From Pseudomonadota bacterium (GTDB lineage: Bacteria; Desulfobacterota; Desulfovibrionia; Desulfovibrionales; Desulfovibrionaceae): a stretch of DNA of 64,000 nt. The first letter of the stretch is position 1, and every line of letters begins with the position of its first letter. The notes beneath the pieces were generated by a model, which ran no database searches, was not told the DNA's origin, and was given only the letters and a program-made list of their open reading frames with translations. The stretch covers positions 1 to 64,000 of the forward strand of contig JAHIUW010000023.1 in NCBI GenBank assembly GCA_018816865.1, read 5' to 3'. The position numbers were made by a program, and so were the translations under genes. Shown here one piece after another: positions 52,016-64,000 of the stretch.

Positions 52016-52969
52016 TCAGTCTGCCGTCTCCTTGGCCGGTTCCTCGCTGGTCACGGCCCCGGACTGGTCGTAGAACATGCCGCAACGCAGGTCGAAGTGG
52101 CGGTTGATGCTCATGGTGGGGCAGCTGGCGTTGAGGGCCACTTGGGCCACGGTGGAGCCGAGATAGGCCTCCTCGGGATCCTTTACCTTGCTGTGGTGGG
52201 CCATCAGGATCAGGTCGGCCTTCTTCATCCGGGCGTACTTCAGGATCTCCATGCTGGGCACTCCTTCCCAACATTCGTAGCTGACCTCGTGGATGCCTTC
52301 CAGGCGCGGGCCGAACTCCTGCTCCATGCGGGCCTTGGCCGTGGCGATGCCTTCCTCGATCTCCTCCTGCGAGGGCGTGTCGTGCCCCTGCGGGATATCC
52401 AGGACCGAGAAGACATGCAGGGCCGCCTTGTACTGGCGGGCCAGTTGCCCGCCGTAGCCCACAGCGCATTCGGCCTGGAACGAGAAGTCCGTGGCCACCA
52501 CGATGTTGCTGAACTGCATCCGTTCCTCGGGCACTTCGCGGGCCACGATCATCACCGGGCAGCGGGCCTTCTGGCTGACGCGCTCGATGTTCGAACCGGC
52601 CACGCCCCACATCTTGGCGCGGCGGTGCAGGTCGTCCTTGGTGCAGCAGCCCATGACGATGAGATCCGCATTTCTCTTGCGCGCCAGGCGTAGGACTTCG
52701 GCATGCGGGATGCCCGGAACGACAGTCACCTTGCAGTCCTCGCAATCGGCGAGGTGCTTGGCGTAGTGCTTTTCGATGGCCCCCTTGATCTGGTCCACCT
52801 CACCGGAGGGCATCATGTGTTCGATGGCGCCCCAGCCGTGGGACGGCAGGCCGCAGACATGGATCATTGCCAGGTTGGATTCGTGCTTCTTGGCGAACGC
52901 GAAGGCCGCGTCGGCCGCGCACTGACACACATCGGACGGGGTTACTGCCAAAATGATGTCCTTAAACAT
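52016..52969 (-). CDS. Tandem universal stress protein (two UspA domains).
   Basis: Two Usp folds, each with an ATP-binding G-x2-G-x9-G(S/T)-like motif (VMGCCTKDD..., LMAHHSKVKD...GSTV). Confidence 0.8.
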   Translation of the reverse strand: MFKDIILAVTPSDVCQCAADAAFAFAKKHESNLAMIHVCGLPSHGWGAIEHMMPSGEVDQIKGAIEKHYAKHLADCEDCKVTVVPGIPHAEVLRLARKRNADLIVMGCCTKDDLHRRAKMWGVAGSNIERVSQKARCPVMIVAREVPEERMQFSNIVVATDFSFQAECAVGYGGQLARQYKAALHVFSVLDIPQGHDTPSQEEIEEGIATAKARMEQEFGPRLEGIHEVSYECWEGVPSMEILKYARMKKADLILMAHHSKVKDPEEAYLGSTVAQVALNASCPTMSINRHFDLRCGMFYDQSGAVTSEEPAKETAD

Positions 52970-53091: not shown

Positions 53092-54063
53092 TCAGTCGGC
53101 CTCGCCGATCGCGACTCCTTCCTCTTCGGGCACGGGCGGCGGTGGCGGCCCGGCCGTGAACTTGTCCATGAACCCGCGGGTCAGCGCCAGGTTCTTGTCG
53201 AGCATCAATTCATGTCGCGACAGGCCCATGGCCAGCCCCAGCAACTGGGGCAGATAGAGGATGGTCATGGGCTCGCGGATCCCGGCCTGCTTCTGGAAGC
53301 TCTCCAGGTTCATCTGGCACATGGGGCAGACCGTAACGATGGCATCGGCCCCTGTGGCCGCGTCCAGAACCTCTTGGATGCGCGGCAGGGCGGCGGCGCG
53401 GTGCGTGGTGGCCAAGGAGGCCCCGCAGCAGCGTGCCCCCTTGTCCCAGGTGTGGATGTGTGCGCCCGTGGCCGTGAGGATGGCCTCCATGCTCACGGGA
53501 CGTTCCGGATCGTCGAACTGGGCGTAGGGCCGCAGCGTCTGGCAGCCGTAATAGGGCGCGAGGGAAAAGCCCTCCAGGGAGTGGCTGATCTGCCCGGCGA
53601 TGGCGTCTGGCCCCACGTCGAAGGCCAGCACGTCCAGCAGGTGGCGGACCTCGGTGAAGTTCTCCCAGGTCAGACCCTCGGCCAGGAGGACCTCCTCCAC
53701 CCGGGCGGAGAGTGCGCGGTCGGCGCGGGCCTCCTCGCGGGCGGCCAACAGGTTCAGATAGCAGGCGCTGCACGGGGCCAGGACGTCGCGTCCGGCCAGA
53801 TCGCGCTCGGCCAGGGCCAGGTTGCGGGCGGGCAGGGCAAAGGCCAACAACTCGCTCACGGCCTGACCGGCGCTGGCTCCGCAGCAGGTCCAGTCCGGGA
53901 TATCGACCAAGTCCGCACCCAGGCGCGCAAGCAGCGCGCGGGTGCTGGCGTCGAATTCCACGGCCGTGCCGGTCAAGGAACAGCCGGGGTAATAGGCGTA
54001 CTTGATCTGCTTCTTCATGCCCCTGCTCGTTTCGCTCTGATCGTGCTTTTGCTTTGTCATCAT
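53092..54063 (-). CDS. hdrB: Heterodisulfide reductase subunit B (two CCG domains).
   Basis: YYPGCSL...WTCCGAS and YYGCQTL...CCGASL; ATGATGA overlap with hdrC. Confidence 0.85.
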   Translation of the reverse strand: MMTKQKHDQSETSRGMKKQIKYAYYPGCSLTGTAVEFDASTRALLARLGADLVDIPDWTCCGASAGQAVSELLAFALPARNLALAERDLAGRDVLAPCSACYLNLLAAREEARADRALSARVEEVLLAEGLTWENFTEVRHLLDVLAFDVGPDAIAGQISHSLEGFSLAPYYGCQTLRPYAQFDDPERPVSMEAILTATGAHIHTWDKGARCCGASLATTHRAAALPRIQEVLDAATGADAIVTVCPMCQMNLESFQKQAGIREPMTILYLPQLLGLAMGLSRHELMLDKNLALTRGFMDKFTAGPPPPPVPEEEGVAIGEAD

Positions 54064-54640: not shown

Positions 54641-57600
54641 TCAGTTCAGGTCGGACAGGGCCGCGTCGATCTCGCGCATGACCTGGCCGTCCTTGAATCC
54701 GGTGAGCACGCTGGCGCTGTTGGGGCAGACCGCCGCGCATGAGCCGCAGCCCTGGCAGAGTAGTTCGTCCACCACGGCCACCCCCGCCTCCAGGTCCAGG
54801 GACCTCGCCCCGTATGGGCAGGCGGGCACGCAGCGCCCGCAGGTGGAGCACAGGCTGGCGCGGACCTCGGCCTTGATGCGCCCGCCGATGACGGTCTCCT
54901 GGGAGAGGATGCGCATGGACCGCGAGGCCGCGGCCTTGGCCGAGGCGATGGTCTCGGACATGTTGCGCGGGCTGGAACAGACCCCGCACAGGAACACGCC
55001 CTGGCGCAGGAAATCCACGGGCCGCCACTTGGACTCGGCCTCCTGGAAGAATCCGTCGCCATTGAGCGGCACCTGGAAGACCTCGGCCATTTCGTCTGCG
55101 CCTGCGGGCTCCATGCCCACGGACAGCACCAACAGGTCCGTGCTCACGGCGATCTCGCGGCCCAGGATGGGGTCCGTGGCCGTGACCGTGGGCCGATGCT
55201 CGGTATCGAAGGTCACCCGCGGCTTGTCCGTGGGCTCGTAGCGGATGAAGATCACCCCCTTCTTGCGGGCCTGGGTGAAGAAGCGCTCGGCAAAGCCGTA
55301 GCTCATGATGTCGCGGTAGAAGACGTACACGGGCAGGTCCGGGTTGCGTTCCTTCAGGGTCAGGGCGTTCTTCAGGGCCGAGGCGCAGCAGACCCGCGAG
55401 CAGTAGTTGCGGGGTTCCTCGCGGGATTCCACGCACTGGATCATGGACACGCCCGAAAGCGCGCCCGTGTCCAGGGAGCCGTCGTTCAATCCGGCCTCCA
55501 GCTCGCTCTGGCGCAGCACGCTCTTATGCACCCGGTAGCCGTAGGAATCGGGCACGACTTCGCTGGCGCCCGTGGCCAGGATGGTCACCCCGTGTTCCAG
55601 GGTCATGGCTGTGCCCTCGTCCATGGCCACGGCGCTCATGAAGCGTCCGGCCCGACCCAGGGAGAGCATGATCCGCGAGTTGAGGAAGGTCTTGATGTTC
55701 GGGTGGCGCTGGACCTGGTCCACCAGGTCCTCCAGGAAGCCGCGTGCGTCGCCTCCGCCCAGGGTGGTTTGTACGTTCAGGGCCAGCCCGCCCAGTTGGT
55801 CGGACTGTTCCACCAGACAGACCTCGTAGTCCTGGTCGGCCAGGGCCATGGAGGCGGTCATGCCCGCTAGGCCACCGCCCACCACCAGGGCGCGCGGGGT
55901 CACGGGGGACTTGCCCAACAGCGGCGAGGGGTCGGCGTCGGCCAGGCGCACGGCGGCCATGGTCAGGGAAATGTAGACCTCCCGCGCCAGGGCGTCGTCG
56001 GAGCTCATGGCCCCCGGGAAGGTCGGGGTGTAGACGTCCACCACGTCCATGAAGGCTGGGTCCAGGGCGATGCGGGCGCCCAGTTCCCGCAGCCTGGGTA
56101 CGTAAGCGTAGGGCATGCAGGCCCCGATCAGGATGCGGTTGGGCAGATGCTTCTCGGCCAGGGCTTGGATCTCGCCCCAGCCGCCACCGCCGCAGGCATT
56201 GCTGATGGAGGCCACGTGGATCACTGTGGACAGGTCCGCCAGTTGGGTAGCCAGGGCGTCCATATCCACGCGGGCCGTCAGGGTCGGGCAGTCCGTGCAT
56301 AGAGCCACCAGCATTCGGGGCTCCTCGCGGGTCACGTCGCGGTATTCGGGCGCAGGCTCGGGTTCGGCCTCGCGCGGCGGCGAATAGATCTTGTAGGTCC
56401 TGGCCGCGCCTAAGGCTGCGGCCCCGGACTGGATAACCGAGTCGGCGATGTCCCGGGGCTGGCCCATGGCCCCTGCGGCGAACACGCCCAGGCGCGAGGT
56501 GCGTGCAGGCTGGAATTCGCCGGTCAGGGCGAAGCCCGTGTCCAGGGTCTCGATGCCAGCGGCCTCGGCCAGTTCGGCCATCTTTGCCGGGGGCCTGACC
56601 CCGGTGGAGAGCACGAACAGGTCGAAGACCTCGGTCTCGAGCTCGCCCTTGTCGTTCACGTAGCGTACGGGCACGCCCTGGGCGTCTGGGCCAGCCTCGA
56701 TGGAGTGCAGGCGGGTGCGCACGAAGCGCACGCCCTGTTCATGCTCGGCGCGGTCGCGGTAACGCTGGAAGTCCTTACCAAAGGTGCGCATGTCCATGTA
56801 AAAGATGGTGGTTTCGGCCTGGCCAGCGGTGAGACGCTTGGCCAAGAGGGCCTCCTTGATGGCGAACATGCAGCAGATGGACGAGCAGAAATCGGCGTTG
56901 CGGTTCACATCGCGGCTGCCCACGCATTGCAGCCAGCCGATCTTGCGGGCGGGTTGGCCGTCCGGGCGCAGCAGCTGGCCGCCCGAGGGGCCGGTGCCCG
57001 AGCACATGCGCTCGAATTCCACGGCGGTCATCACGCCGGGGATGGTCCCGTAGCCCCAGAGCTGGCCGCCTTTGGCGGGGTTGAAGCATTCGAACCCCGC
57101 GGCCAGGACAACGGCCCCGACTTCCAGTTCGTGGCGGATGTCGGACATCATGCGGATGTAGGTCTTGTCCAGCCAGCGCCCCACCTGCTTGCTCAACGGC
57201 GTGACCAGATAGTCCCTGGCTCCTTCCTCGATCAGGCGTTCGGCCAGGTCCTGCTGCTCCGGGTCGATGATCAGCACGACTCGCAGGTCGGGGTATAGCT
57301 CCAGGCCGCGGCGCATGACCTTCTCGAAATCGATGTCCTGTGCAGTCAGATCCAGGAACAGCAGTTGCGTGGGCGTTGCCTCCAGCAGATCGCGGGCCTG
57401 GTCCGTGGTCAGGGCCGCGTGCGCGGGCAGTTTGATCTTGCCGCACCAGCCGGTCAGTTGTTCCCCTAGCTCCTGGCCCGCTGCGATCAGGATGTGGAAG
57501 TCCGGCCGGGCCTCGTCCTTGAAGTCCACGGCTCCGGTGGGGCAGGCCTCGAAGCAGGCCCGGCAGCGGGTGCAGCGTTCCAGGTCCACTACGTAGCGAT

Positions 57601-58066
57601 TGGGGATGGCGTGGGGCACGGGCAGATGAATGGCCGTGCGCGTAGAGAGTCCCGCATTGAATTCGCTGGGCACGCTCACCGGGCAGACCTTGGCGCATTC
57701 CCCGCAGCTGATGCAGCGCTCGGGGTTGACGAAGCTGGACCGCTGCCGCAGCGTCGCCCGGAACTTGCCCGGGTCGCCGGTCAGCGTTGCCAGTTCAGTG
57801 CCGGTCAGGATGTCGATGTTCTTGTGGAACAGACCTTTGCGCATGCAGAACTGGCTGGAGGCGTCCCGGCTGGTCAGCGGCAGCATCTTGCACATGCCGC
57901 AATGGTCGCTGGGGAATTGGTGGTCGAGTTGGGTCAGGATGCCGCCGATGCCGGGGCGCTTGTCGATCAGCGCCACCTTGTGTCCGGACTCGGCCAGGTC
58001 CAGGGCGGAGCGGATGCCCGCGATGCCGGCTCCGACCACCAATGCTGCATAGTGCTTCCTGTTCAT
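54641..58066 (-). CDS. Giant HdrA-like flavoprotein (HdrL-type): two tandem HdrA FAD/Fe-S modules, an internal MvhD-like domain and a receiver-like insert.
   Basis: Two dinucleotide motifs (VVGAGIAGIRSA, LVVGGGLAGMTAS). Two HdrA Cys clusters (LQCVGSRD...CSSICC, IQCVESRE...CSRVCC). Four ferredoxin CxxCxxCxxxCP motifs. MvhD-like CTDC...ACGGGGW...ACMPYAY. Confidence 0.8.
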   Translation of the reverse strand: MNRKHYAALVVGAGIAGIRSALDLAESGHKVALIDKRPGIGGILTQLDHQFPSDHCGMCKMLPLTSRDASSQFCMRKGLFHKNIDILTGTELATLTGDPGKFRATLRQRSSFVNPERCISCGECAKVCPVSVPSEFNAGLSTRTAIHLPVPHAIPNRYVVDLERCTRCRACFEACPTGAVDFKDEARPDFHILIAAGQELGEQLTGWCGKIKLPAHAALTTDQARDLLEATPTQLLFLDLTAQDIDFEKVMRRGLELYPDLRVVLIIDPEQQDLAERLIEEGARDYLVTPLSKQVGRWLDKTYIRMMSDIRHELEVGAVVLAAGFECFNPAKGGQLWGYGTIPGVMTAVEFERMCSGTGPSGGQLLRPDGQPARKIGWLQCVGSRDVNRNADFCSSICCMFAIKEALLAKRLTAGQAETTIFYMDMRTFGKDFQRYRDRAEHEQGVRFVRTRLHSIEAGPDAQGVPVRYVNDKGELETEVFDLFVLSTGVRPPAKMAELAEAAGIETLDTGFALTGEFQPARTSRLGVFAAGAMGQPRDIADSVIQSGAAALGAARTYKIYSPPREAEPEPAPEYRDVTREEPRMLVALCTDCPTLTARVDMDALATQLADLSTVIHVASISNACGGGGWGEIQALAEKHLPNRILIGACMPYAYVPRLRELGARIALDPAFMDVVDVYTPTFPGAMSSDDALAREVYISLTMAAVRLADADPSPLLGKSPVTPRALVVGGGLAGMTASMALADQDYEVCLVEQSDQLGGLALNVQTTLGGGDARGFLEDLVDQVQRHPNIKTFLNSRIMLSLGRAGRFMSAVAMDEGTAMTLEHGVTILATGASEVVPDSYGYRVHKSVLRQSELEAGLNDGSLDTGALSGVSMIQCVESREEPRNYCSRVCCASALKNALTLKERNPDLPVYVFYRDIMSYGFAERFFTQARKKGVIFIRYEPTDKPRVTFDTEHRPTVTATDPILGREIAVSTDLLVLSVGMEPAGADEMAEVFQVPLNGDGFFQEAESKWRPVDFLRQGVFLCGVCSSPRNMSETIASAKAAASRSMRILSQETVIGGRIKAEVRASLCSTCGRCVPACPYGARSLDLEAGVAVVDELLCQGCGSCAAVCPNSASVLTGFKDGQVMREIDAALSDLN

Positions 58067-59694: not shown

Positions 59695-61698
59695 TTAGGC
59701 CTGCGACTGTGCGCTGGGCACGGTGGTCGGTTCCGGCATGGTGGGGACCTCGTCCAGCAGGCCCTCCAGTTCCGAGAAGACCTGACGCTCGGTGAAGTGC
59801 TTGATCTGGGCCGCTCCGCTGGGGCAGTGCCCGGCGCAGCTGCCGCAGCCCTTGCACATGGCCTCGTTGACCACGGAGACCCCGCGGCGGCTGTCGAACT
59901 CGATGGCCGAGTAAGCGCACAGCCCGATGCAGGCCTTGCAGCCGATGCAGATGTCCGGGTCGATGTAGGACGTGGTGGGCGAGACCTCCACGGTGCCGCG
60001 GGCGGCCATGGCCAGGGATTGGGCCGCCGCGCCCGAGGCATGGGCCACGGCATCGGGGATGTCCTTGGGGCCCTGGCAGCTGCCGCCCAGGAAAATACCG
60101 TCCGTGGCCGTGGACACCGGCCCGAGCTTGGGGTGCTCTTCCAGGAAGAAGCCGTCCCGGCCCTGGGCCACGCCGAAGATGCGGGCCACCTCGGAAGTGT
60201 CGTGGCGACATTCCATGGCTGTGCAGAGGATGGCCATGTCCACGGGCACCTCCAGCAGCTGGGCGGAGAGGGTGTCCTCGGCGATGATCAGCAGCTTGCC
60301 GTCCTGGCGCTGACGGATTTCGGAGGGCCGGCCGCGGACGAAGGTCACGCCTTCCTTCTGCACGCGGACCAGGAATTCTTCGTAGCCCTTTCCGAAACAT
60401 CTCAGGTCGATGTAGAAATTGTAGATGGGCGTGTTGTGTCCTACCTTGTCCTTGATCAGGTGGTCGTACTTCAGGGCGTACATGCAGCAGACCCTGGAGC
60501 AGTATTCGTGGTGATTCACGTCGCGACTGCCCACGCAGTGCAGCACGGCCACGCTGCCCGGAGGCTGACCGTTCTTCATCAGGATTTTGCCGCCCGTGGG
60601 GCCCACGGCGTTGTTCAGGCGCTCGAACTGCAGGGCGGTGTAGACCTCTGGAAAGCGCCCGAAGCCGTATTGGGTGATGGGGGTGGGGTCCATGGCGTCG
60701 TAGCCCGTGGCCAGGATGATGCTGCCCACCTCCAGCTCGATGAGCTGCTCGGTCTGTTGGAAATCAATGGCCCCGGACGGGCAGAACTTCTCGCAGGCGC
60801 CGCACTTCTTGCCGTTCAGGACGCGGCAGTGCTCGGCGTCGATGACCGGGGTCGCGGGCACGCTCTGGGGCGAGTTGCGGTAGATGGCACGGCGCTGGGC
60901 CATGCCCTCCTCAAAGATCGAGTCCACGCGTGTGGGGCATTTTTCCAAGCACAGGCCACAGCCGGTGCACTTGGTGGCGTCCACATAGCGGGGCTTCATC
61001 TTGACCGTGGCCTTGTAGTTGCCCACAAAGCCCTCGACGTGGGTCACCTCGGACCAGGTCAAAAGATGGATGTTGGGGTCCTGGGCCACGGCCACCATCT
61101 TCGGTGTCGAGATGCAGGCCGCGCAGTCCAGGGTGGGGAAGGTCTTGTCGAATTGGGCCATGTGTCCGCCGATGGACGGGGCACGCTCGACGAGATGCAC
61201 CCGGTGGCCCGAACGGGCCACATCCAGGGCCGCCTGGATGCCCGCGATGCCGCCGCCCACGACCATCACGTCGGGGCTGACGGGTACCTCGCGTGAATGC
61301 AGCTCCTGATGCCAGCCCACGCGGGCCACGGCTGCCGCTACCAGGTGCTTGGCCTTGAGGGTGGCCTCGGCGGGGTCTGCGGTGACCCACGAACAGTGCT
61401 CGCGAATGCAGGTCATCTGGAAGAAATAGGGGTTCAGCCCGGCGCGGGCGCAGGCCTTCTGGAAGGTCTTTTCGTGCAGCCGGGGCGAGCATGAGGCCAC
61501 CACCACCCGGTTCACCCCGAGGTGCCGGATGTCGTCAATGATCATGTCCTGACCCGGGTCCGAGCACATGAATTTGTAGTCGCGGCTGACCACGACCCCG
61601 GGCAGGCTTTTGGCAAAATAGGCCACGCCTTCGCTGTCCACCTTGCCCGCGATGTTGGTTCCGCAGTGACAGACATAGACGCCGATTCGCTTGGCCAT
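59695..61698 (-). CDS. hdrA: Heterodisulfide reductase subunit A (canonical, about 660 aa).
   Basis: N-terminal VYVCHCGTNI; FAD motif MVVGGGIAGIQAALD; LHCVGSRD...CSRVCC; four [4Fe-4S] motifs. Confidence 0.9.
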   Translation of the reverse strand: MAKRIGVYVCHCGTNIAGKVDSEGVAYFAKSLPGVVVSRDYKFMCSDPGQDMIIDDIRHLGVNRVVVASCSPRLHEKTFQKACARAGLNPYFFQMTCIREHCSWVTADPAEATLKAKHLVAAAVARVGWHQELHSREVPVSPDVMVVGGGIAGIQAALDVARSGHRVHLVERAPSIGGHMAQFDKTFPTLDCAACISTPKMVAVAQDPNIHLLTWSEVTHVEGFVGNYKATVKMKPRYVDATKCTGCGLCLEKCPTRVDSIFEEGMAQRRAIYRNSPQSVPATPVIDAEHCRVLNGKKCGACEKFCPSGAIDFQQTEQLIELEVGSIILATGYDAMDPTPITQYGFGRFPEVYTALQFERLNNAVGPTGGKILMKNGQPPGSVAVLHCVGSRDVNHHEYCSRVCCMYALKYDHLIKDKVGHNTPIYNFYIDLRCFGKGYEEFLVRVQKEGVTFVRGRPSEIRQRQDGKLLIIAEDTLSAQLLEVPVDMAILCTAMECRHDTSEVARIFGVAQGRDGFFLEEHPKLGPVSTATDGIFLGGSCQGPKDIPDAVAHASGAAAQSLAMAARGTVEVSPTTSYIDPDICIGCKACIGLCAYSAIEFDSRRGVSVVNEAMCKGCGSCAGHCPSGAAQIKHFTERQVFSELEGLLDEVPTMPEPTTVPSAQSQA

Positions 61699-61710
61699 GA
61701 TCTTCCTCCT

Positions 61711-62157
61711 TTACCTCTGTGGCTCCCGGTCCGGATAATCTTTCAGGGCCAGGGTCAGCTCTGCGACGAGTTGCTTGAGTCTTGCGTTCTCGCTCCGGAG
61801 TTCGGCTTCGGCGCGGGTCTTGCGGCCATCCTCGAACAGTCGGGGCAGATTGCTCGTCAGTCTCTCCTGCCACTTGTAGTATTGGCTGGGGCAGATGCCG
61901 TAGTGCTCACACAGTAGGGAGACCGGGGTGCCCTTGATCCCCTGAAGCACGATTTCGGCCTTGGTGTTGGGGTCCCAGCGCCTGCGTCTCACCTTCGCCT
62001 CCGCATCCGCCTGCGCCCCGCCCGTTACGGGCGTGACAACCTCCCAAGAACAAGAAGCGTACCCGTACCGGAATTTGTTTGCCTTTTCAGGGGTTTTTCG
62101 CTGTGGGGTTCCTTGATTGCAGCGGGGACACAAGGGAAAAACTGTCTTGCTGTGCAA
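61711..62157 (-). mobile_element. IS3-family transposase OrfA remnant (no OrfB), abutting the hdrA start.
   Basis: RRRWDPNTKAEIVLQGIKGTPVSLLCEHYGICPSQYYKWQERL HTH and a leucine-zipper tail (LRSENARLKQLVAELTLALK); no transposase catalytic ORF follows. Confidence 0.65.
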
Positions 62158-62419
62158 GATTTATCTTGTCTGGCAAGACTCGAAGCCTTGGGCTGAGGCA
62201 CCGGAAACGCTGAGGATTATCCGAGGGCTGGATATCTTCAGTGCCGGGGGCAGCGGGGTTTGCGCTGGCAGGGTGCAGGTCCTGGCTCCAACTGTCTTGC
62301 CCGACAAGATCATCCCAGTGTTTTCCTGGGAATTCGAGGAAGTTGACATCATGCGCTTTTTCTTCCCATAGTGGACACTCAAAGGACCCCTGGCGCAGCG
62401 GGGAGCGGAGGGAAAGGCC

Positions 62420-64000
62420 ATGGCGAGCTCCAAGCCATCGGGATTAAAGACAGCAGAGACTGTCCGCAGCGAGGACTGGGCCGATCTGACAACCGGCACC
62501 AGTTTCGCACTGCTCATCGCCCCTGACGGGACCATCCTGGCGGCCAATGAGGCCGTGGCTCAGAGGCTGGAGATCCCCCTGTCCAGATTCGTGGGCAGTT
62601 GCATCTACGATCATTTCCCTGTGGAAACCGCCGCGCGCAGGCGGGCCATGGCGGCCATGGCCCTGGAGACGGGTGTCGCCCAGTCCTATGAGGATGTCTC
62701 CAGTTCCGGCAATGTGCTGGACACGGTGATCCATCCCGTGCTGGGGGCGGATGGCAAGGCGGTGACCCTGGCGGTGTTCGCCACCGATGTCACCGGGCAG
62801 CGGCGGATCATGCATGAACGCCTGCGCATGGCCACGGCCATTGAACAGGCCGTGGAGGCCGTGGTCATCTACGACACGGATTTCAGTATCCGCTACGTGA
62901 ATCAGGCCTTTGAGGAGATGACCGGCTATTCCCAGAGCGAGGTCCGGGGCCGGTCCGGAGAGTTGCTCTATCAGGGCCGTCATCAGCAGAAGTCCCTGGG
63001 GCTCATCAGGACAGCCATGGCCGAGGGCGAGGCCTGGACCGGGCGGACCTTCAACACCCGCAAGGACGGGCGGGTGATCCAGGTGGAGAAGACTGTCTCG
63101 CCCATCCGGGGGCGGTTCGGGGTGCCCTTGGGTTGGGTCAGCGTCTGGCGCGACGTGACGCACGTGGCCGTCTTGGAAAAGCAGCTCAGGCAGGCCCAGA
63201 GCATGGAGGCCATCGGCACTCTGGCTGGGGGCATTGCCCACGATTTCAACAATATCCTGGGACCCATTATTCTGCACTCGGAATTGGGTCAGACAATGGT
63301 CCCCGAGGGGAGCCCGGCACACCTGAGCTTTTCAGAGATCCTGGAGGCCGCCAACCGGGCCCGGGCCCTGGTGGACCAGATCCTGTCCCTGTCGCGCAAG
63401 CATGAGGCCGACGAGCCAGTACTCTTCCGTTTGTCCAGTATCTGCAAGGAATGCATCAAGTTCCTGCGGCCTTCTCTGCCCGCCACCATCGCCATCGTCG
63501 AGGACCAGCGCGCCGAGGATGATACGATTCTGGCCGACCCCACGCAGATTCATCAGGTGGTCATGAACCTGGCCACCAACGCGGCCTACGCCATGCGCGA
63601 GCAGGGCGGCACACTGACCCTGGCGGTCCAGGCCGTGGATCTGGACCTGTCCATGCGTTCGCTGTTCCCGGATGCGGGGGTCGGGAGCTATGTGATGCTG
63701 ACCGTCAAGGACACGGGCCAGGGCATGCCCAAAGAGCATCTGGAACGGGTCTTCGACCCCTTCTTCACCACCAAGAAGAGCCTGGGCACGGGCCTGGGCC
63801 TGACCGTGGTCCACAACATCGTGACCCGCCATGGCGGGGCCGTGCGTCTGGAGAGCTCGCCAGGCGTCGGCACGGCCTTTCACGTGCTCCTGCCGCGCAG
63901 CGAATCGCCCGGACTGGTCCCGGCCGAGACCCTGATCGCCAGTCCGATCCTGGGCAGCGGTCAGGTACTGTTTGTGGACGACGAGGCCGCGCTGCGCACG
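62420..64000 (+). CDS. PAS/PAC hybrid sensor histidine kinase, 3'-partial (the receiver domain begins at the window end). Not in the ORF track because there is no stop codon in the window.
   Basis: Own translation from atggcgagctcc. Two PAS domains. H-box GIAHDFNNIL. HATPase G-boxes (DTGQGM, GTGLGLTVV). VLFVDDEAAL is a receiver start. Confidence 0.75.
   Translation, partial: MASSKPSGLKTAETVRSEDWADLTTGTSFALLIAPDGTILAANEAVAQRLEIPLSRFVGSCIYDHFPVETAARRRAMAAMALETGVAQSYEDVSSSGNVLDTVIHPVLGADGKAVTLAVFATDVTGQRRIMHERLRMATAIEQAVEAVVIYDTDFSIRYVNQAFEEMTGYSQSEVRGRSGELLYQGRHQQKSLGLIRTAMAEGEAWTGRTFNTRKDGRVIQVEKTVSPIRGRFGVPLGWVSVWRDVTHVAVLEKQLRQAQSMEAIGTLAGGIAHDFNNILGPIILHSELGQTMVPEGSPAHLSFSEILEAANRARALVDQILSLSRKHEADEPVLFRLSSICKECIKFLRPSLPATIAIVEDQRAEDDTILADPTQIHQVVMNLATNAAYAMREQGGTLTLAVQAVDLDLSMRSLFPDAGVGSYVMLTVKDTGQGMPKEHLERVFDPFFTTKKSLGTGLGLTVVHNIVTRHGGAVRLESSPGVGTAFHVLLPRSESPGLVPAETLIASPILGSGQVLFVDDEAALRT

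Follow-up and report, generated by a model that had tools for sequence, protein, structure and literature searches.

A pseudo-receiver domain inserted next to a ferredoxin domain in a tandem HdrA-like flavoprotein of Desulfovibrionales

The first 64,000 nucleotides of contig JAHIUW010000023.1 (GenBank assembly GCA_018816865.1; Pseudomonadota bacterium, assigned to the Desulfovibrionaceae in GTDB), referred to here as the window, carry a cluster of genes for proteins of the HdrA, HdrB, HdrC and MvhD types. One of these genes encodes a 1141-residue HdrA-like flavoprotein in which a sequence-only reading of the window had noticed an insert resembling a degenerate CheY-type receiver domain. The insert, its host protein and the surrounding genes were analysed, and the coordinates of all features are compiled in Table 1.

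Table 1. Features of the tandem HdrA-like protein, its insert and the neighbouring genes (residue numbers refer to the 1141-residue protein).
Feature	Position in window	Strand	Basis or remark
Tandem HdrA-like flavoprotein, 1141 aa	54641..58066	minus	Pfam, NCBIfam, full-length AlphaFold2, Foldseek
Inserted ferredoxin domain of HdrA module 1, residues 110-185, two CxxCxxCxxxCP motifs	57512..57739	minus	Pfam Fer4 at 113-132 and 158-180
Pseudo-receiver (CheY-fold) domain, residues 186-312, 127 residues	57131..57511	minus	AlphaFold2, Foldseek, family profile, Pfam PF00072
A196-G197 at position of acidic pair (CheY D12/D13, Mg2+-binding)	57476..57481	minus	hmmalign; β1 = residues 191-195 in models
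D239, equivalent of phospho-acceptor Asp (CheY D57, Spo0F D54)	57350..57352	minus	hmmalign; last residue of β3
I267 at Thr/Ser position (CheY T87)	57266..57268	minus	hmmalign; last residue of β4
T289 at Lys position (CheY K109), followed by conserved P290	57200..57202	minus	hmmalign
Helix α5 (QVGRWLDKTYIRMMSDIRH), family-specific motif W-L-D-K-x-Y-x-R-x-x-S-D	57131..57187	minus	conservation among 120 homologues and full-length model
Divergent hybrid PAS histidine kinase, 635 aa in source contig, runs off window	62420..64000	plus	followed by σ54-type response regulator
Small HTH_Tnp_1-type protein, 93 aa, conserved first gene of cluster	61711..61992	minus	Pfam HTH_Tnp_1
Canonical HdrA, 667 aa, without insert, same operon	59695..61698	minus	
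MvhD/FlpD-type subunit, 140 aa	59248..59670	minus	Pfam PF02662, E = 4e-53
FrhB/FdhB-C-like iron-sulfur protein, 381 aa	58085..59230	minus	Pfam FrhB_FdhB_C and Fer4_8; gene called in source contig
HdrC-like protein, 187 aa	54060..54623	minus	
HdrB-like protein, 323 aa, two CCG domains	53092..54063	minus	
Tandem universal stress protein, 317 aa, conserved last gene of cluster	52016..52969	minus	

The 1141-residue protein displayed the hallmarks of HdrA, namely a thioredoxin-reductase-type FAD fold with GxGxxG, the cluster motif CxGSRD...C..CC and an inserted ferredoxin domain for two [4Fe-4S] clusters. In a phmmer search against the Protein Data Bank (PDB), residues 1-561 matched HdrA of Methanothermococcus thermolithotrophicus (5ODC_A; E = 2e-84) in two blocks, and a full-length AlphaFold2 model (predicted template modelling score 0.87) matched HdrA chains in Foldseek with E = 7e-48. 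Two FAD/NAD(P)-binding modules starting at residues 9 and 726 were recognised by Pfam, as were four 4Fe-4S motifs, two within residues 113-180 and two within about 1027-1118. Module 1, which consists of the FAD fold with the inserted ferredoxin domain and the receiver, is followed by a linker resembling the N-terminal domain of HdrA, by module 2 and by a C-terminal ferredoxin domain. The best NCBIfam matches, HdrA2 (644 bits; cut-off 1100) and HdrA (493 bits; cut-off 1400), remained below the equivalog level; the best-matching stretch comprised residues 819-1138 of the second half and pointed to HdrA2. The protein is an HdrA-like paralogue.

HdrA of methanogens (PDB 5ODC, 7BKB and 8RVY) shares the FAD fold, the inserted ferredoxin domain and the CxGSRD...C..CC motif with the window protein. 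It differs in having no receiver insert and in being a single module that dimerises, whereas the window protein consists of two fused modules, each without domains that the other possesses. The window protein looked like a pseudo-heterodimer of HdrA in fused form: in module 1 an inserted ferredoxin domain is present and the N- and C-terminal domains are absent, residues about 585-720 resemble the HdrA N-terminal domain, and module 2 has the C-terminal and no inserted ferredoxin domain. The name HdrL, under which the protein had been described in the sequence-only reading, had to be abandoned. HdrL of Desulfobacterium autotrophicum is a fusion of HdrA with a glutamate-synthase-type NADH-binding part (PMC2702500), whereas the second half of the window protein consists of a further module of the HdrA type and a ferredoxin domain.

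The site of the insert was defined by the alignment to 5ODC_A, in which query residues 7-185 correspond to HdrA residues 145-313 and query residues 313-555 to HdrA residues 318-562. As the first block stops at residue 185 and the second resumes at residue 313, 127 residues replace a four-residue linker (residues 314-317 of 5ODC chain A) through which the chain, on leaving the inserted ferredoxin domain, re-enters the FAD fold of the thioredoxin-reductase type. The ferredoxin domain itself, which aligns with residues 238-313 of 5ODC_A, lies directly N-terminal to the insert. Neither 5ODC_A nor the canonical HdrA encoded in the window contains an insert, and '...AIDF' runs straight into 'ELEVG' in these proteins. 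The proposed location between the ferredoxin insert and the resumed FAD fold, and the absence of the insert from canonical HdrA, were therefore borne out by both alignments. The span first assigned to the domain (57184-57505), which translates on the minus strand to PDFHILIAAGQE...GARDYLVTPLSKQ (residues 188-294), was in the right place but too short. Helix α5 (residues 294-311), the best conserved part, lies outside of it, and the full domain therefore extends over 57131-57511. In the full-length model the predicted local distance difference test score (pLDDT) was 89-95 through both junctions, and no flexible linker was seen. A short helix (residues 184-189) precedes β1, and the helix at residues 294-308 (α5) runs directly into the FAD-fold strand 310-321 with a pLDDT of 89-94 at this junction.

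When the window copy alone was compared with the Response_reg profile of Pfam (PF00072), the match was below threshold (E = 0.001; 19.8 bits with a gathering score of 30.2 bits; profile positions 26-103 of 111). At the family level, by contrast, 51 of 52 orthologous inserts matched PF00072 with a best E value of 4.8e-16, so that the expected profile hit was obtained for the family, and weakly for the single copy. Weak sequence matches of the insert in the PDB were receivers in 25 of 27 cases, all in one register. A profile made from the 52 orthologous inserts detected 271 PDB chains (best E = 8.7e-14), and the best 60 of these were all receivers or designed proteins modelled on receivers. The same profile matched 341,118 proteins in a library of 1.84 billion representatives; no new architectures were revealed by this search, in which multi-receiver proteins dominated and only two to three clusters belonged to the insert family. 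With the insert alone as query, no match was obtained in a set of 5.8 billion proteins, for which the word index is too coarse for a fast-evolving segment; the full-length query did find homologues.

Structure prediction led to the same assignment. AlphaFold2 modelling on the alignment of the 52 orthologous inserts (pLDDT 94.2) yielded the order β1-α1-β2-α2-β3-α3-β4-α4-β5-α5, and these elements of a five-stranded parallel (βα)5 receiver recurred in the full-length model. In a Foldseek search of the PDB, the insert model matched the receivers of Spo0F, CheY and NtrX (template modelling scores 0.77-0.85; root mean square deviation 1.6-2.5 Å; probability 1.0). The insert is a separate (βα)5 domain of the CheY type and not an extension of the thioredoxin-reductase fold, which had been named as an outcome that would speak against a receiver. 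Both its ancestry and its fold make it a genuine member of the CheY-like receiver superfamily, and the resemblance goes beyond chance.

Catalytic positions were assigned by aligning the insert to CheY and Spo0F with the family hidden Markov model (hmmalign) and were checked against the strand ends in the AlphaFold2 models. All three motifs quoted in the sequence-only reading were present at the places proposed: ILIAAGQE forms β1 and the β1-α1 loop, LLFLD239, the match to the phospho-Asp loop, is the end of β3, and DYLVT289P, the match to a DYLxKP segment with Thr in place of Lys, comprises β5 and the Lys-Pro position. The term 'degenerate' was likewise justified, given that D239 is the sole one of the five catalytic residues that is kept in the window copy. 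The first acidic residue after β1 is E199, and at this place most orthologues are longer than the window copy by one residue. Phosphoryl transfer in receivers depends on the metal-binding Asp and on the Lys. As the window copy has lost the acidic pair that binds Mg2+ along with the Thr and the Lys, it most likely cannot carry out canonical Asp phosphorylation.

The same positions were inspected in the 120 listed homologues of the full-length protein (54-100% identity, all from Desulfovibrionales). In the phospho-acceptor column Asp was found in 64, Gly in 43, Ser in 9, Ala in 3 and Glu in 1 of them, i.e. Asp was missing in 56 (47%). The first acidic position was occupied by Asp in 72 homologues and the second was almost never acidic (Glu in 6); Thr or Ser was present at the end of β4 in 11 and Lys at the end of β5 in 93, Thr being found at the latter position only in the window copy and a few others. 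None of the 120 homologues possessed the complete catalytic quintet, and for this reason the whole family is regarded as a pseudo-receiver family. The most eroded members were the window protein and its 89%-identical orthologue from D. ferrophilus, in both of which the Lys and one loop residue, kept by most orthologues, are missing. Bourret and co-workers define a bacterial pseudo-receiver as a computationally recognised receiver that is devoid of at least one of the five catalytic residues; such domains act without phosphorylation, commonly via protein-protein contacts (PMC12632262). Having lost four of the five, the window insert is a pseudo-receiver under this definition. It falls outside the aspartate-less subset of receivers, D239 being present.

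Features that the insert has in common with CheY and Spo0F are the (βα)5 fold, a phospho-acceptor Asp closing β3, a Pro directly behind the Lys position and, three positions before the latter, an aromatic residue (Y286). It differs from them in having no acidic pair, Thr/Ser or Lys, in being internal to an enzyme rather than an N-terminal module, and in an α5 that is lengthened and carries the family-specific motif. Absence of catalytic residues and, presumably, independence from phosphorylation are common to the insert and to the pseudo-receivers of FrzS (PMC1974792) and of the FleQ type (PF06490), and five members of the insert family also match PF06490. The host of the insert, however, is a multi-cluster flavoprotein and not a transcription factor or polarity protein, and about half of the family members retain the Asp. 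A receiver joined covalently to an enzyme is also found in response regulators with enzymatic output such as CheB, PleD, RssB and PorX and in the receiver-thioredoxin-reductase fusions listed in the census by Galperin (PMC5847659). The last-mentioned fusions come closest, as their receiver is joined to a flavoenzyme with thioredoxin-reductase fold. The receivers of all these proteins are located at a terminus and usually have an intact catalytic site, whereas the window insert is nested beside the inserted ferredoxin domain and degenerate.

The explanation towards which we lean, with some reservation, is that the insert serves as a phosphorylation-independent pseudo-receiver that is docked rigidly beside the inserted ferredoxin domain. 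In a single insertion event, a receiver would have entered the short linker leading from the ferredoxin domain back into the FAD fold of module 1, and would then have been kept throughout one Desulfovibrionales family. We infer rigid docking rather than tethering from the model, because of the high pLDDT through both junctions and because α5 continues directly into a strand of the FAD fold. The 'bottom' face of the insert together with helices α3 and α5 may pack on the flavoprotein body. In this position the insert could fix or bias the position of the neighbouring ferredoxin domain, which we take to be the low-potential electron exit; alternatively, it could offer a surface for a partner subunit. 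Neither function would involve phosphorylation.

The pattern of conservation among the homologues is consistent with this explanation. The insert, which according to the sequence-only reading was to be looked for in other large HdrA proteins, was kept in all 120 listed homologues, representing two families of Desulfovibrionales, and no loss or truncation was seen. The four closest genes aligned without any gap. The ratio of nonsynonymous to synonymous substitution rates (dN/dS) of the insert was below 1, though about twice that of the other domains. For the four closest genes it ranged from 0.16 to 0.76 (0.16 in the comparison with D. ferrophilus) versus 0.07-0.34 for the rest of the protein; absolute values are unreliable in this GC-rich, codon-biased genome, and only the contrast between domains is used. 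Universal retention, gapless alignment of the closest genes and a dN/dS below 1 suggest that the insert is maintained and not decaying. Within the insert, conservation was highest (0.66-0.79) in the N-terminal linker (ERxDF), in the α1-β2, α3-β4 and α4-β5 loops and in helices α3 and α5, and it was low (0.27-0.46) in the active-site loops β2-α2, β3-α3 and β4-α4, with α1 scoring 0.35. In the standard receiver topology, such conserved loops and both chain termini are located on the face opposite the phosphorylation site. R253 was invariant, and E256, P259, G282, A283, P290, W298, L299, D300, K301, R305, S308 and D309 were conserved in at least 90% of the homologues.

A number of points, set out in this and the following paragraph, weigh against a phosphorylation-independent docked domain. 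The docking face is deduced from receiver topology and the effect on electron flow, too, is inferred. Literature searches retrieved no paper on a receiver in HdrA and no functional study or experimental data for the family. Further, the insert is the least conserved region of the protein, with a mean top-residue frequency of 0.57 versus 0.64-0.82 elsewhere, and with a dN three to four times that of the flanking domains it is the fastest-evolving part. Such evolution also fits a nearly neutral spacer. The insert might accordingly be an evolutionary relic, i.e. a once-functional receiver that is now tolerated as a well-folded spacer and has no role beyond not disturbing the enzyme. The free drift of the catalytic residues and the highest dN/dS in the protein, reaching 0.76 between close relatives, agree with this, as does the fact that canonical HdrA and a receiver-less tandem HdrA-MvhD paralogue (locus L011, 14493-17990) function with a short linker at this site. 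The absence of any loss or truncation, a dN/dS below 1, the very high model confidence and the family-specific surface motifs (WLDK..R..SD, R253, E256 and P259) make a relic unlikely in our view.

The remaining points concern the phospho-acceptor position. D239 is retained in the window copy, and the occurrence of Asp in the family was related to the hybrid histidine kinase gene that lies next to the cluster. Among 25 loci with enough upstream sequence, Asp was present in 15 of the 16 in which the kinase is adjacent, the exception being L029 with Gly, and in none of the nine without kinase (L007, L008, L010, L012, L013, L015, L016, L023 and L026). Seven of the latter are Pseudodesulfovibrio-type loci with Gly; L023 and L026 have Ala. 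The Fisher p value of this association (5e-6) ignores phylogeny and greatly overstates the evidence, and on a neighbour-joining tree Asp and kinase were lost together in two independent clades. The same reasoning has been applied to DVU0749 of D. vulgaris, in which Asp is replaced by Gly and no kinase is located nearby (PMC3333781). Retention of the Asp along with the kinase hints at a phospho-linked role, at least ancestrally.

Taken at face value, the association would suggest a working phospho-switch in which the adjacent kinase, directly or via a relay, phosphorylates D239, adding post-translational two-component control of the enzyme to σ54-dependent transcriptional control. Apart from D239, the divergently adjacent kinase and σ54-type regulator, found here and in 15 other loci, are in line with such a switch. 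The acidic pair, Thr and Lys are, however, replaced by A196/G197, I267 and T289, and the absence of a metal site and of the Lys speaks against canonical chemistry in the window copy; the full quintet is likewise missing from every homologue. Moreover, the co-losses number only two and L029 is an exception, and the kinase has an obvious canonical partner next door, the receivers of this pair showing no sign of a shared origin with the insert. A phospho-switch is thus judged to be quite improbable for the window protein.

The receivers of the neighbouring kinase and σ54-type regulator are canonical (VDDE... and VDDD...). An origin of the insert from them was tested and rejected: the insert profile gave them 25-27 bits and Spo0F 51 bits, and because of these lower scores the insert is not regarded as a recent copy of its neighbours' receivers.

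Contact with the two-component system might also be made in the unphosphorylated state, if the insert acted as a sensing or docking module that binds a small ligand, a redox partner or the neighbouring kinase and, for example, feeds the state of the enzyme back to the two-component system. Pseudo-receivers commonly act by protein-protein contacts (PMC12632262), the kinase, the σ54-type regulator and the tandem universal stress protein are conserved neighbours, and conservation of D239 tracks adjacency of the kinase. Yet the upper face on which a kinase would dock is the least conserved one (α1 and the active-site loops), and no ligand-binding motif was found in the insert, which makes such a module a rather remote prospect. 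HdrA-type flavoproteins form the core of several electron-bifurcating complexes, and positioning of their ferredoxin domain is thought to control the destination of electrons. On this background the embedded receiver could be imagined as an allosteric gate of a flavin-based electron-bifurcating enzyme, in which phosphorylation of D239 or binding of the kinase repositions the ferredoxin domain and switches the low-potential branch. We regard this as speculative and scarcely probable; if true, electron bifurcation would be controlled by a two-component system directly, at the level of the protein.

A receiver in a tandem HdrA is not newly seen. The orthologue EGB14598.1 of Pseudodesulfovibrio mercurii is named 'response regulator receiver modulated heterodisulfide reductase subunit A', and the UniRef entries A0A2Z6B1E5 (D. 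ferrophilus, 89% identical), C8X090 (D. retbaense) and F3Z2F4 (D. africanus) are named 'Response regulator receiver protein'. These names are automatic, and PF00072 is precomputed on most of the named orthologues. Like the window protein, they are tandem HdrA proteins of 1141-1157 residues with the receiver at the same site and the gene in the same operon, at 55-89% identity. The window copy adds one more member, a more eroded one, to a family that carries annotation but has not been studied. The present analysis adds that the whole family consists of pseudo-receivers, defines exactly where in the HdrA structure the insertion took place and provides, as a testable hint, the tracking of the Asp with the neighbouring kinase. 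A signalling-type domain that is fixed beside the ferredoxin domain and conserved across an order of sulfate reducers provides a handle for asking about post-translational regulation.

The gene order around the insert was compared with that of related loci, which were searched with an alignment of 12 sequences; 54 of the 80 loci obtained were ordinary receivers caught by the β1 pattern. The source contig and 27 related loci had the following order in common: divergent genes for a σ54-type response regulator and a hybrid PAS histidine kinase, the gene for the small helix-turn-helix (HTH) protein, hdrA, mvhD, the frhB-like gene, tandem hdrA with receiver insert, hdrC, hdrB and tandem usp. The kinase/regulator pair was kept in 16 of the 25 informative loci, and the regulator alone remains in the Pseudodesulfovibrio-type loci. 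The region of the kinase (PAS-HisKA-HATPase-receiver) and the σ54-dependent regulator continues past the window (L003, 2295-5647).

The receiver-less paralogue in L011, a metagenome-assembled genome of Desulfohalobiaceae, is encoded just downstream of the cluster. It is a second tandem HdrA of 1165 residues (36% identity) that is fused to MvhD. Its existence implies that the tandem architecture predates the insert or is independent of it, and it provides a useful natural control for the role of the insert.

The 93-residue HTH_Tnp_1-type protein was considered as the remnant of an insertion sequence disrupting the operon. This was rejected, as the open reading frame (ORF) occupies the same position in 12 other loci. 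It shows 43-55% identity across several genera, and gene calls exist for it in D. ferrophilus and Desulfocurvus. Probably it encodes a domesticated small DNA-binding protein and is the first gene of the operon. A σ54 promoter was sought upstream of hdrA, and no match with up to two mismatches was present in 61699-62420, matches in the whole window being fewer than expected by chance. A GG-N10-GC element near 62055-62070 is weak and was spotted by eye; no promoter claim is drawn from it.

Long ORFs overlapping the tandem hdrA gene on the opposite strand or in other frames (for example 56705-57298 and 57267-57596 on the plus strand, together spanning 56705-57596, and many others) are by-products of the high G+C content and not genes. 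No family was matched by any of them, and the region is explained by the real gene. As to the remaining members of the cluster, tandem usp occurred in practically all loci whose sequence is complete at this end of the cluster, and the FrhB/FdhB-C-like gene was located between mvhD and tandem hdrA in all loci. A second FrhB-like gene, absent from the window, precedes hdrA in D. retbaense (L001, 5187-6254) and in L018.

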